This document shows positions 7,407 to 45,609 of a stretch of 63,499 bases of DNA, in pieces (the first letter of the stretch is position 1; every line of letters starts with the position of its first letter). The notes under the pieces were generated by a model. That model saw only the letters and a program-made list of their open reading frames with translations. It was not told the origin of the DNA and did not search any database. Where the stretch lies: positions 1 through 63,499 of the forward strand of contig JAPPQH010000005.1 in the NCBI GenBank assembly GCA_028817035.1. Direction: 5' to 3'. The DNA comes from Candidatus Campbellbacteria bacterium. GTDB lineage: Bacteria; Patescibacteriota; Minisyncoccia; Phycocordibacterales; JABAAK01. The position numbers and the translations under genes are program-made.

Positions 7407-8090
7407 TTACACGGAGTATTCACCCTTATTATTATCACGGACAACTGAGCCATCTTCAAGTGTTATCACGCGACCGCCAACACTTTTTACAACCCCCTTG
7501 TCATGCGAGGTCAGAATTATTGTATGACCAAGTTTGTTTATTTGTTTAAGTATATCAATAACCTCATAAGAGTTCAGCGGATCTAAATTACCAGTCGGCT
7601 CATCAGCGATTATTATCTCTGGCCGCATCACTATCGCCCTTGCGATTGCCACTCTTTGCTGTTCCCCACCAGAGAGTTGTCGCGGAAAGCTATCTGATTT
7701 TTCTGACAGATTAACAAGTTGTAAAACATAAGGGACATCCTCTTCTATTATCTCATCAGGGACACCACACGCCTCCATCACAAATGCGACATTTTCAAAC
7801 ACCGTTTTGTTTTTAAGCAGACGAAAATCTTGGAATATGGCACCAATCTGCCTCCTGTAATCTATAAGTTCCCCTTTTGAAAGATTGTGTATATCAATTT
7901 CATCTACAAACACCTCACCAAAAGTTGGCTCCTCCTCCGTCAGCAAAAGTTTCAGGAGAGTTGTCTTGCCCGATCCAGAATAACCAGTCAATGTTATAAA
8001 TTCATTATTACCCACCCTGAAAGAAACATTGTGAAGGGCGTTTGTATTGTCATATTCTTTTGTTACTCCTTTGAATTCTATTTTTGCCAT
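7407..8090 (-). CDS. ftsE: Cell-division ATP-binding protein FtsE
   Basis: Walker [18 protein letters not shown] signature and Walker [14 protein letters not shown] lies 7 nt upstream of the ATG, which looks leaderless. Confidence 0.9.
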
Positions 8091-8123
8091 TTCAAGTATT
8101 TTAACCTATTTTATATAGATATG

Positions 8124-8162
8124 TAAATAAAAACACTCCGCCATTACTGGTAAGGAGTGTTT
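8124..8162 (-). terminator. Intrinsic terminator closing the sRNA array, upstream of ftsE
   Basis: AAACACTCC / GGAGTGTTT stem followed on the minus strand by TTTTATTT. Confidence 0.6.
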
Positions 8163-8185: not shown

Positions 8186-8293
8186 TGGAAAATATGGGGT
8201 CCTCTACCTTGGTTAAGAGCGACGTGTTGGGTTTTACGCTACCTTTCCTTTCATTCTGTGAAAAAAAAGAACTTTCGGCAAAGAACCCCACAC
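8186..8293 (-). ncRNA. Long-hairpin small RNA, unit A (unassigned family)
   Basis: Promoter TTGACA (8321-8326), 17-nt spacer, TATCCT (8298-8303). The 5' GUGGGGUUCUUUGCC pairs with the 3' GGUAGAGGACCCCAU over 15 bp, followed by a U-rich tail. Confidence 0.65.
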
Positions 8294-8339
8294 AAATAGG
8301 ATATATTATGCCCTTGGGTTTGTCAATTTATTAAAATTG

Positions 8340-8421
8340 TGTGGGTAGATGTGGGGTCCTCTACCTTTAAAACCCTCACGGGCTCACAACAACTTTCAGA
8401 CATCGGCAGAGAACCCCACAA
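8340..8421 (-). ncRNA. Long-hairpin small RNA, unit B
   Basis: Promoter TTGACA (8450-8455), 17-nt spacer, TACCTT (8427-8432). 15-bp closing helix 8405-8419 with 8351-8365, and an internal GUGA-capped hairpin. Confidence 0.65.
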
Positions 8422-8464
8422 CAATAAAGGTATATTATGCCCTTGGTCTTGTCAATTTATTAAA

Positions 8465-8558
8465 ATATAGAAAGTGTGCAGGACCTTCTATAGCCTCGTC
8501 CTTAGTCGGATGGGTTTGCGGGATGAAACCACCCGACGCACAATAAAAAATCCTGCAC
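8465..8558 (-). ncRNA. Long-hairpin small RNA, unit C
   Basis: Promoter TTGACA (8589-8594), 17-nt spacer, TACACT (8566-8571). 16-bp closing helix 8543-8558 with 8476-8491, and an inner 12-bp hairpin. Confidence 0.65.
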
Positions 8559-8611
8559 GAATAAAAGTGTATTAAACTTTTTTTAATTTGTCAAATTTAT
8601 TGAAATTGTGT

Positions 8612-8681
8612 AAATAGAAAATATGGGGTCTCCTACTTTACCGGTTGGCAGAGACGAAATCGGTAAAGCAAAAGACCCCAT
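8612..8681 (-). ncRNA. Long-hairpin small RNA, unit D
   Basis: Promoter TTGACA (8711-8716), 17-nt spacer, TACCAT (8688-8693). AUGGGGUCU/AGACCCCAU closing helix plus CUUUACCG/CGGUAAAG, then AUUUUCUAUUU. Confidence 0.65.
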
Positions 8682-8784
8682 AAGTAGATGGTATGGCTTA
8701 CTTTTTAATTTGTCAAACTGATAAAATAAAGACAGATTTTGGTTTTGTACCAGAAACCAATTCTATGCTATCCTTGTAAGTGAA

Positions 8785-8858
8785 GCGAATGTAGCTCAGT
8801 TGGTTAGAGCACTCCACTGATAATGGAGAGGTCGTAGGTTCAAATCCTACCATTCGCA
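8785..8858 (+). tRNA. tRNA-Ile (anticodon GAU)
   Basis: GCGAATG acceptor, CTCCA-CTGATAA-TGGAG anticodon arm, GTAGG-TTCAAAT-CCTAC T arm. Confidence 0.9.
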
Positions 8859-9080
8859 CAAACATTTCGCTTAACACACAAAATAAAAGGAGTTCTGGCT
8901 CGCTACCGACAGAACCAATCGCGATAGCGATTTGGGTTTTGCGAAGCAAAACTTGGCGGGTGGAGCAGCGAGCGACAGCGAGCGCCGGAACCAAAACAAA
9001 AATGTATAATTTCTTTAACATTTTTGTTTTGGTTTGGTACCGTCAAGTGAGATTCCTACCATTCGCACAAACATTTCGCT
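8845..9080 (+). mobile_element. 182-bp hairpin-rich insert flanked by a perfect 27-bp duplication of the tRNA-Ile 3' end
   Basis: TCCTACCATTCGCACAAACATTTCGCT occurs at 8845-8871 and 9054-9080. The insert holds a GTTTTGCGAAGCAAAAC hairpin, a GAGCGACAGCGAG motif and a 15-bp stem (CCAAAACAAAAATGT / ACATTTTTGTTTTGG). Confidence 0.6.
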
Positions 9081-9094
9081 CTTGTAAAGATTAA

Positions 9095-9124
9095 CGCCCC
9101 GAACGAAATTAATCGTTCGGGGCG
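9095..9124 (-). terminator. Terminator of the 9152-9667 gene
   Basis: 12-bp stem CGCCCCGAACGA / TCGTTCGGGGCG with a 6-nt loop. Confidence 0.6.
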
Positions 9125-9151
9125 TGTGGATTGCTCGCCACAACCTTCTCC

Positions 9152-11704: not shown

Positions 11705-13160
<1,456 letters not shown>

Positions 13161-13295
13161 ATTGAATAACGGTTGAGCGGAACAAAAGAAAACACAAATT
13201 ATTATTTGAGCTCTTTAAGACTGGTTGCATTTTGTATTGAACAAAAATATGTTAAAGATCTTCCCTGCTCTCCTACAAAGAAAGCAAGGACTTTC

Positions 13296-13345: not shown

Positions 13346-13374
13346 TTGACATAGAACAACCAATGGTGTATATA
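13346..13374 (+). promoter_or_regulatory. Promoter of the Cys-rich protein gene, divergent from the 16S promoter
   Basis: TTGACA (13346-13351), 17-nt spacer ending in TG, TATATA (13369-13374). Confidence 0.55.
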
Positions 13375-13416
13375 ACTTTTAGGTTCTTTTTAGGAAAAAC
13401 AAAGGAGGTATCCAAG

Positions 13417-14085
13417 ATGACCACGCAAAATGCTGGGCATCAAGGATGCCCAGGCGGAGAGAAGAAAGAAGAGGAAGGAAAGAAGGGTGTGTGGTGCTAT
13501 TGTAAGAAGTGTAAAGGATGGAGGGAGCACTGCGCACATGGTCTTTGTAAGCTTTGCTACAATAAGCAACGGAAGGCGAGAGAGTTCCTATGCCCAGGGT
13601 GTAAAAGATGGAGGGAATACTGCGCACACGGTTTCTGCAAGAGTTGCTACAACAAGCAATGTTGTAAGGCGAGAGAGTTCCTATGCCCAGGATGTGAAAG
13701 ATGGAGGGAATACTGCGCACACGGTTTCTGCAAGAGTTGCTACAACAAGAAACGGAAGGCGATAGAGCTCCTATGTCTAGGGTGTGAAGAACAGAGGGAG
13801 CACTGCGCACACAAACTCTGTCGTCGGTGTTACAAAAAAGTTCGGCGCCTAGCCAAAAAAGAAGGGCTGACAGTGAAAAAATTTTTGGCAAAGGAAGGAG
13901 CGAAGATATTACCATTTGCACCTTCACCGCCACGACCAAAGTCATCAAAAGCGAAAAAGGGTAACAAGCTTTTGACAAAAAAAGAAATGTCGTTGCCAAA
14001 AGAACAAAGGGTGAAACTCATCAAAGAAAGAAGGCTATCTCTCATCAAAAATGCTGTTGAGAGGTATCAATTGCCAAAATATTAA
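13417..14085 (+). CDS. Basic protein with four tandem CxxC-x6-CxH-xx-CxxC zinc-binding modules and a Lys-rich tail
   Basis: ATG at 13417 preceded by CAAAGGAGGTATCCAAG. Four repeats of C..C......CAHG.C..CY, and a 93-bp near-identical DNA duplication from about 13578 and 13671. Confidence 0.75.
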   Translation: MTTQNAGHQGCPGGEKKEEEGKKGVWCYCKKCKGWREHCAHGLCKLCYNKQRKAREFLCPGCKRWREYCAHGFCKSCYNKQCCKAREFLCPGCERWREYCAHGFCKSCYNKKRKAIELLCLGCEEQREHCAHKLCRRCYKKVRRLAKKEGLTVKKFLAKEGAKILPFAPSPPRPKSSKAKKGNKLLTKKEMSLPKEQRVKLIKERRLSLIKNAVERYQLPKY

Positions 14086-14236: not shown

Positions 14237-14278
14237 GGGGGGTTGACAAATCTTGCGACTTGGTATACCATATATATT

Positions 14279-14390
14279 GAGGGTCGGAGAGTTCTCCAAC
14301 CTTTCGGGATGGGGGACTAAAAATCCCGTTAAAAGTCCCCTAGCGGGTGTGTGGAGACTAGCAACCTCTCCACCACCCGCTTAATCTTTT
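14279..14390 (+). ncRNA. Unassigned small structured RNA of about 110 nt with a predicted pseudoknot
   Basis: Promoter TTGACA (14243-14248), 17-nt spacer, TACCAT (14266-14271). Closing helices GGGU/ACCC and GGAGAG/CUCUCC. The loop of hairpin CGGGA/UCCCG (GGGGACU, 14312-14318) pairs with AGUCCCC (14334-14340). 3' CUUUUUA. Confidence 0.5.
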
Positions 14391-17467: not shown

Positions 17468-17474
17468 GGGATCG

Positions 17475-34947: not shown

Positions 34948-35010
34948 GGGTTGATAATAGTGGGATAATAGGGGGTTGACAGATGGTTGGCTTGGGTGTA
35001 AGATACTAAA

Positions 35011-35395
35011 CAGATGGGGATTGGAAATCGCCCAAAAATGCGATTCTCCAACAAACCCAACCGATCTCTAAACTCCAAATACAACCAGTTGCTCTGAAGG
35101 GCGGTGTTTATGTTGTATTTGTCTCAGTAGAACTGAAGGCTTGTCGTTTACAGCGGCAACCTTCGGTAAATTAGCGACAGCCCTTAGTGGTTGTTTCTTG
35201 AGGTCCCCAGTAAGCAAAACTTCTGGGTAGGAATGCAGTTAAATCCAAGACTCTACTGAGGCTGAACGATGGAGAAAAGTTGAAAATCCCAACACGGTCG
35301 CAGGAGGACTGGGATATCACAATTTCTTCAAAGGACAGTGAAACTGCAGGCAGCGCGCCAATAACACTTTGTGTTAGGTGCGCTGCTTTTATTTT
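35011..35395 (+). ncRNA. Unassigned structured RNA of about 385 nt
   Basis: Promoter TTGACA (34976-34981), 17-nt spacer, TAAGAT (34999-35004). Long-range pairings 35077-35086/35111-35120 and 35123-35131/35252-35260. Terminator hairpin 35350-35386 plus a T run. Only short spurious ORFs. Confidence 0.55.
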
Positions 35396-45393: not shown

Positions 45394-45609
45394 CTTGAAA
45401 TCAATTACAAATACCCTTGTGGTATTTGTAATTGGTTTTTGGTCTAAGCGGGAATTCTCACGGACGGGGTTGCAGGGGGTTTCCGAACCCCCTGCAGGGG
45501 TCAGCGAAACAAAACAATGTCTTTGTTTTGTTGAGCGCATAGGGGTGCACCCCTATGGCGCAGACAACACGAAGTGTTGTCGAGCAGTGAGTGTTCCCTT
45601 TAGACACCC
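45380..45609 (+). mobile_element. 200-bp hairpin train flanked by a 15-bp duplication of the tRNA-His 3' end
   Basis: TCCCTTTAGACACCC occurs at 45380-45394 and 45595-45609. The insert contains five consecutive hairpins: 45402-45434, 45471-45496, 45508-45532, 45535-45561 and 45563-45581. Confidence 0.6.
45402..45440 (+). terminator. Intrinsic terminator after tRNA-His
   Basis: CAATTACAAATACC-CTTGT-GGTATTTGTAATTG followed by GTTTTT. Confidence 0.75.

Follow-up and report, generated by a model that had tools for sequence, protein, structure and literature searches.

Four candidate sibling small RNA genes in tandem between tRNA-Ile and ftsE in a Patescibacteria (CPR) lineage

The minus strand of the tRNA-Ile/ftsE intergenic region carries four consecutive units, arranged in the order D, C, B, A from 8716 to 8186, in each of which an exact TTGACA and, after a 17-nt spacer, a TAnnnT hexamer are followed by a self-closing RNA helix (coordinates refer to the window, i.e. 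the whole 63.5-kb stretch of DNA that was analysed). The existence of these four promoter-plus-hairpin units, described in an original prediction made from the letters alone, is confirmed, and the interpretation then attached to them is partly supported. On balance, we read the region as four paralogous sibling genes for small non-coding RNAs, which probably arose by local tandem duplication within one Patescibacteria (CPR) lineage. The features legible in the DNA on which this view is built are the promoters, the strand-specific compensated helices, a separate terminator, the lineage-specific presence of the array and its apparently young age. The elements of the region are as follows.

8785..8859, plus strand: tRNA-Ile(GAU), divergent from the array; marks the conserved junction where the array inserted
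8688..8716, minus strand: unit D promoter; TTGACA (8716-8711), 17-nt spacer, TACCAT (8693-8688)
8612..8682, minus strand: predicted unit D RNA; 22-bp helix 8682-8661/8643-8622 with 3 G-U pairs, 17-nt loop, tail AUAUUUUCUAUUU, z = -7.7
8566..8594, minus strand: unit C promoter; TTGACA, 17-nt spacer, TACACT
8466..8559, minus strand: predicted unit C RNA; 16-bp helix 8558-8543/8491-8476 running into an internal hairpin, tail ACUUUCUAUAUUUU, z = -5.0
8427..8455, minus strand: unit B promoter; TTGACA, 17-nt spacer, TACCTT; 87% identity with the A promoter over 46 nt
8344..8420, minus strand: predicted unit B RNA; 16-bp helix 8420-8405/8365-8350, 39-nt interior with one small hairpin, weak U tail, z = -7.1
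8298..8326, minus strand: unit A promoter; TTGACA, 17-nt spacer, TATCCT
8186..8293, minus strand: predicted unit A RNA; 17-bp helix 8293-8277/8208-8192, 68-nt interior with two hairpins, tail UUUCC, z = -4.5
8122..8162, minus strand: canonical intrinsic terminator after the array; 9-bp stem AAACACUCC/GGAGUGUUU (hairpin 8162-8131), then UUAUUU, z = -3.5
8098..8127, minus strand: ftsE promoter-like site, outside the array and given for context; TTTACA, 18-nt spacer, TAAAAT, ending 7 nt before the ftsE ATG (8090)

A regular-expression scan of both strands recovered the exact TTGACA-17-TAnnnT arrangement in all four units, as had been proposed, and returned only eight such sites in the whole window, half of them within the array. 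In every unit, and always on the same strand, the base of the helix lies 3–7 nt past the -10 hexamer. When the whole window was searched for closing helices that measure 16 bp or more and span 40–130 nt, only the array units and two terminator-type palindromes came up. Given this rarity of both promoter and helix in the window, the observation is real and far above chance. The -35 hexamer of the array promoters is stronger than that of the lone 16S rRNA gene (11707-13163, minus strand; TTGCAT-17-TACAAT), and in units C, B and A an A/T-rich TTTTAATAAA precedes it. Each unit occupies about 130 bp. The gap between ftsE and the tRNA gene measures 694 bp, not the 620 bp first given; the accompanying statement that it holds no credible ORF agrees with the independent Logan assembly L001, in which no gene is called within the array region. 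This assembly is 100% identical to the array region across 1.2 kb, so the array is not an assembly artefact.

Re-checking the helices showed the arm coordinates of the original prediction to be right, and a recount returned the same numbers of G-U pairs for the closing helices of A, B and C (4, 2 and 3). The helix of unit D, which had been described as 9 bp long and fully Watson-Crick, is actually the 22-bp, G-U-containing helix listed above. The interiors enclosed by these helices vary in length (A 68, B 39, C 51 and D 17 nt). Compared with shuffled sequences, the minus-sense and plus-sense folds have z = -4.5 and -0.1 for A, -7.1 and -2.9 for B, -5.0 and -3.0 for C, and -7.7 and -6.7 for D. 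A U-rich tract had been reported after each helix; it is good in A and D (AUAUUUUC) and moderate in C, but poor in B (ACAUCUACCC). Because B has no convincing U tract, independent termination is insecure for the set of four, and transcription from B probably continues into A. The arms of B and A would also be able to form a nested alternative pairing in a full-length transcript.

The four units are clearly related by descent. Promoters, downstream flanks and arms are alignable across all of them; the promoters of C and D are alike, the D arms are 83% identical to the A/B arms over 24 nt, and the C arms align with those of A, B and D as a diverged paralogue, which runs against the earlier view that C and D have different arms. 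A and B do share their arms as claimed, but their interiors are not altogether unrelated, having the first and last ~10 nt in common; otherwise, interiors are mostly unrelated across units. To say that the architecture is conserved rather than the sequence was thus an overstatement, since homologous promoters, flanks and arms clearly mark the units as tandem paralogues. The arm pattern, leaving unit C aside, can be written as TGGGGTYYTYTGC...GRRGACCCCA. Allowing up to 3 mismatches, the arm motif has only the three copies of A, B and D in the 63.5 kb, all inside the array. From the homology of promoters, flanks and arms it follows that the array grew by tandem duplication and that the interiors were later replaced or remodelled.

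The divergence between the paralogues also gives evidence on what has been maintained. The four arm pairs were aligned by sequence with MAFFT and pairs were counted. In this sample of four paralogues, with no orthologues and with arms that had been chosen for pairing, all 62 of 62 cells pair, and 6 of the 17 base pairs show double-sided changes; one pair column goes through the series G-C (B, C), G-U (A) and A-U (D). Wobble cells are exclusively of the G-U type (12 G-U versus 0 A-C). In the controls, sliding the partners left 0–1 double-sided changes, and the observed value was reached in only 1 of 500 shuffles. As no homologues were found beyond this population, the covariation evidence comes from the four paralogues only. 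Pairing kept through divergence, together with a wobble bias that falls on the strand of the promoters, argues for a constraint at the RNA level. The proposed minus-sense orientation and selection on RNA structure are therefore borne out by the 12:0 wobble ratio and by the compensatory changes between paralogues, and we consider it supported that selection acts on RNA pairing of the units.

By position, the array is upstream of ftsEX, as the original prediction had it, but it is separated from ftsE by the canonical terminator at 8162-8131 and by the promoter-like site of ftsE itself. With a terminator and a separate ftsE promoter downstream, the array forms its own transcription unit. The ftsE gene is apparently leaderless: the TAAAAT hexamer ends 7 nt upstream of the start codon, and the interval has no Shine-Dalgarno sequence (8090-8127, minus strand). 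The gene content of the window is, from Pfam annotation of 48 ORFs, that of an ordinary CPR chromosome, with pyrG, ftsEX, uvrABC, ribonucleotide reductase, type IV pilus genes and lysS. None of the 48 ORFs scanned with Pfam encodes a Nop/Tas protein, reverse transcriptase, Cas, TnpB, integrase or Ro protein, nor did the same scan of the 63.5-kb window find a gene for an RNA-binding partner near the array.

The other flank of the array, around tRNA-Ile, has duplications of its own. A stretch of 27 nt (8845-8871), made up of the last 15 nt of tRNA-Ile and 12 nt of trailer, is repeated exactly 209 bp downstream at 9054-9080, and a 15-nt stretch upstream of the tRNA (8737-8751) recurs at 9027-9041, just before the second 27-nt copy. 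Such an arrangement resembles a truncated duplicate of the tRNA, or an att-like scar enclosing 182 bp. Inside the 182-bp segment, at 8898-8983 on the minus strand, there is a possible fifth closed hairpin (z = -3.2), in which a closing helix of 10–11 bp encloses two further hairpins and is followed by a CUCCUUUUAUUUU tail; it has CG(U/C)AAAACCCAA in common with the interior of unit A and no consensus promoter. Directly upstream of it on the minus strand, 8989-9034 is a palindrome, perfect over 17 bp, that encloses a 12-nt loop (z = -5.6).

To judge the distribution of the array, we used FtsE as a guide to relatives. This protein places the organism among the Patescibacteria, its named matches being mostly of the Paceibacteria/Parcubacteria type. 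Across 5.8 billion proteins, an identical FtsE was found on three other contigs only and the next best was 70% identical; the lineage is poorly sampled. This genome is present in the samples SRR10996920, ERZ23499976 and ERZ27276928. The closest non-identical homologues (62–70% identity) led to seven relatives (L071-L073 and L089-L092), and no array was seen at any of their ftsE loci, although the sequence ahead of ftsE ends after 124 bp in L089 and 33 bp in L090, too short for the presence of the array to be judged. In L071 (69% FtsE identity) a tRNA gene, read as tRNA-Ile, is divergent from ftsE with 75 bp between them; the tRNA gene is one gene upstream of ftsE in L072 and L073, and in L091 and L092 a protein-coding gene lies immediately upstream. 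The suggestion that the array might be syntenic with ftsEX or tRNA-Ile in relatives hence came out negative at this range of identity.

Broader searches gave the same picture. GTDB species representatives, with FtsE identities of only 53–55%, had no similar units, and a promoter-plus-closing-helix detector run over the loci L001-L088 and the window was positive in the window and L001 only. Scanning JGI metagenome contigs, a collection evidently without this organism, for the arm pattern produced 15 matches, all of them unrelated palindromes or chance occurrences lacking promoters. The arm scan of IMG/VR gave 0 matches and blastn of the array against phages and plasmids gave none. Its absence from relatives and collections points to a young, lineage-specific insertion into a conserved junction. 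The absence from relatives also means that the array may be recent and non-essential, or even neutral.

No described RNA family accounts for the units. At gathering thresholds, Rfam 15 recognized only tRNA and 16S in the window, and with E <= 10 the best result in the array was a eukaryotic miRNA hairpin model, whose 30.9 bits fall short of the gathering score of 70 and reflect generic hairpin similarity. The lack of a match to tRNA, CRISPR, 6S, SRP, tmRNA or Y RNA reported at the outset thus agrees with the Rfam search, which yielded no family match either at thresholds or at E <= 10. Closed-hairpin RNAs such as 4.5S/SRP, 6S, Y RNA and phi29 pRNA resemble the array RNAs in having paired 5' and 3' ends, a long helix containing G-U pairs and strong dedicated promoters. 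The array RNAs, however, are too short for 6S and have no domain IV motif as in SRP RNA, no Ro/TROVE protein that would suit a Y RNA is encoded in the window, and in contrast to all of these, each with a single conserved gene, the locus holds four divergent copies, with no Rfam score above noise.

Listeria LhrC1-4 and Vibrio Qrr are examples of sibling sRNA genes. Clusters of this kind (Listeria LhrC1-4, Vibrio Qrr1-5, Neisseria NgncR_162/163) share with the array the presence of paralogous head-to-tail genes in one intergenic region and, as we read the array, a promoter and terminator for each gene and an origin by local duplication. Of the traits that define such clusters, promoters and paralogy are present here, and terminator-like tails follow A, D and C, with a weak one in B. 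The difference lies in what is conserved. Known sibling RNAs usually conserve a single-stranded seed and leave the 5' end free; in the array, conservation falls on the promoter and on a 16–22-bp helix joining the 5' and 3' ends, and it is the interior that varies. Tandem sibling sRNA genes as such are described as an established bacterial arrangement in passages of published work (e.g. PMC5362039, PMC9973317).

Under the sibling-gene reading, each gene would have a strong sigma-70-type promoter from which transcription starts at, or within 1–3 nt of, the base of the helix. The first 16–22 nt of the RNA would then pair with its last 16–22 nt, and a U-rich tract would follow the helix in A, D and partly in C. 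The closing helix may serve both as an intrinsic terminator and as a shield of both RNA ends against exonucleases, and the predicted products are stable closed hairpin RNAs of ~60–105 nt, with 5' ends predicted near 8681, 8558, 8419 and 8291. Promoter and closing stem would form a conserved scaffold, with the 17–68-nt interior as the carrier of any specificity, for RNA or for protein. Any read-through, for which B is the likeliest source, would be halted by the canonical terminator at 8162-8131, leaving ftsEX to be transcribed from its own promoter. We infer from this arrangement that the units are transcribed, where exactly their RNAs end, that these are stable and that they may act in trans on a partner or target. 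One point against reading the units as sibling sRNA genes is that closing helices around 40–70-nt interiors are atypical as terminators. Target prediction had been proposed for the interiors; their antisense pairing with the 51 translation-initiation regions present in the 63.5-kb window did not exceed that of shuffled controls, and they have no matches longer than 12 nt elsewhere in the window and no exact matches in IMG/VR.

The main rival to sibling sRNA genes is a neutral or insulating by-product of duplication, which we regard as unlikely, if worth serious attention: a segment with a terminator and a promoter would have been tandemly copied, the hairpins being kept for termination or insulation and the short RNAs having no function. 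Unit D amounts to little more than a looped 22-bp stem and its U tract, relatives do without the array, no targets were found for the interiors, and the repeats of 27 nt (tRNA 3' end) and 15 nt nearby are further local duplications. A 19-bp stem terminator stands right after tRNA-His(GUG) (45397-45439, plus strand), so that unusually long terminator stems are in use in this genome; other long-stem terminators measure 17–18 bp (8988-9035) and 13 bp (9094-9125). Other points speak against such a by-product. Four near-consensus promoters firing into terminators would be costly in a reduced genome, and nothing upstream on the minus strand needs four terminators, the 171-aa gene there having its own at 9125-9094. 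The interiors of A, B and C contain extra stable hairpins that a terminator would not need, and both promoters and helices have been retained despite sequence divergence.

A more ambitious version of the preferred interpretation takes the array as a modular RNA cassette system, in which a fixed scaffold of promoter and closing stem presents interchangeable interiors as guides, decoys or exported effectors to a partner whose gene lies in another part of the genome of this episymbiotic CPR bacterium. New units would be formed by duplication followed by interior replacement. We see this as a speculative extension with a small chance of being correct.

It is improbable, and somewhat more so than the cassette proposal, that the units are MITE-like elements in the manner of Correia or ERIC, with the arms as terminal inverted repeats and an outward promoter carried along. 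Correia/NEMIS and ERIC are likewise imperfect palindromes of ~60–130 nt that form RNA hairpins, and they may carry promoters and be RNase III substrates; moreover, A, B and D have common inverted-repeat arms around differing interiors and the insertion is beside a tRNA gene, where a relative has a compact junction. Those elements, however, occur in tens to hundreds of dispersed copies, whereas the array has tandem copies at one locus only. What makes a MITE unlikely is the confinement of the arm motif to the array (the three copies given above, at <=3 mismatches) and the inclusion of promoter and flanks within the duplicated unit, which is the pattern of tandem duplication rather than of transposition. 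No copies were found in the metagenome, viral, phage or plasmid collections, target-site duplications are not evident, and the 12:0 asymmetry between G-U and A-C indicates a constraint on RNA, not on DNA.

Leaderless micro-peptides or a type I toxin-antitoxin locus would explain why the A and D RNAs begin with GUG or AUG and open frames of 37 and 32 aa; the AUG of D is exactly at the predicted transcription start, ftsE is likewise apparently leaderless, and the two ORFs have MG(F/S)FA... and ...DPIFS ends in common. These common ends, though, only mirror the conserved RNA arms, and where the arms of A and B differ, the change is non-synonymous. In B the frame stops after 7 codons, C has an unrelated 18-aa peptide, the D ORF continues beyond the predicted terminator and the start codon would be buried in a -35 kcal/mol helix. 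Type I loci are often tandem repeats, according to passages of PMC2887945, but the ORF list and translations of either strand contain no conserved or hydrophobic toxin-like peptide. We give coding very little credence.

Among systems specific to CPR, TIGR-Tas arrays are the closest analogue, with tandem hairpins, palindromic stems and variable interiors in both. In the passages on them, TIGR arrays have tandem hairpins in which palindromic stems and interiors vary, and they are frequent in CPR/Patescibacteria (PMC12045711; bioRxiv 10.64898/2026.09.09.750476). The four stems of 16–22 bp do fit what is expected of such arrays, namely tandem hairpins whose palindromic stems measure 5 bp or more. 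The rule given in part of the preprint is that each stem-loop holds two intervals of box C (CCA/CGA/CUA/CAA or CUU), 8–10 nt and box D (UG/CG), with a short loop between (bioRxiv 10.64898/2026.09.09.750476). Counted in the RNA sense over the four units, these dual intervals number 0, against a shuffle mean of 4. Neither a candidate for Tas/Nop nor a nuclease fusion was obtained by Pfam from the 48 ORFs of the 63.5 kb, a scan that divergent Nop domains could escape, and PDB sequence searches of three unannotated ORFs returned nothing Nop/Tas-like. Every array unit has a consensus promoter; the passages on TIGR arrays report none, and those of the preprint leave open whether some tigRNAs have promoters of their own. 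In view of the missing dual intervals, the lack of a Tas in the window and the interior of D (17 nt), too short for two spacers, membership in the TIGR stem-loop arrays was rejected. An orphan TIGR-type guide array serving a Tas (Nop-domain) protein from another part of the genome would face the same objections, to which the absence of exact IMG/VR matches of the interiors can be added, and we find it barely credible.

Equally hard to credit are hairpins acting as single-stranded DNA, be it as attC-like recombination sites or as a single-strand replication origin: imperfect palindromes of 60–100 nt with variable centres would suit this, and DNA hairpins also tolerate G-T wobbles, but the attC core motifs RYYYAAC/GTTRRRY were not found in the arms, none of the 48 Pfam-scanned ORFs of the window is an integrase, Rep or relaxase, and a promoter at fixed distance upstream of every helix, on the strand of the G-U bias, is explained by RNA and not by single-stranded DNA.

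Several other parts of the window may be of interest for RNA biology. At 14243-14390 (plus strand) an exact TTGACA-17-TACCAT, with the same -10 hexamer as unit D, stands ahead of ~110 nt of non-coding sequence in which three hairpins and a terminator are found (z = -5.1). The sole Rfam match of this stretch, a candidate for a further sRNA, is sub-threshold SIB_RNA at 18 bits. Between the 16S promoter region and this candidate at 14278 sits the gene (13363-14085, plus strand) of a basic 240-aa protein with four tandem Cys/His repeats (C-x2-C...WREYCAHGFCKSCYNK); its Pfam and PDB matches are weak and RING-like only, and it may be a nucleic-acid-binding zinc protein. Another exact promoter sequence, TTGACA-17-TAAGAT at 34976-35280 (plus strand), is followed by ~280 nt without an ORF, a region with no Rfam match at E <= 1, and then by a 109-aa ORF at 35280. 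ARAGORN called an 86-nt "tRNA-His(AUG)" at 17474-17559 (minus strand) that scores only 48 bits with Rfam; its length suggests a tRNA with a long variable arm or a miscalled anticodon. No 23S rRNA gene was found anywhere in the 63.5-kb window.

We therefore return to sibling small RNA genes as the preferred reading of the array. It would be a candidate new small-RNA family of a familiar kind, tandem sibling sRNAs, with an unusual design in which the stem is conserved and the interior varies, and as far as the data go this family is confined to one uncultivated lineage. CPR/Patescibacteria have tiny genomes and, to our knowledge and in the literature searched, their small-RNA biology has been little described. 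The practical value of the finding is modest until expression, or a second lineage with the family, is found. The insertion point is datable, since a relative keeps the tRNA beside ftsE with only 75 bp between them, and if the four RNAs are expressed, the array would be a clear and easily testable case of newly evolved sRNA genes in a tiny genome.
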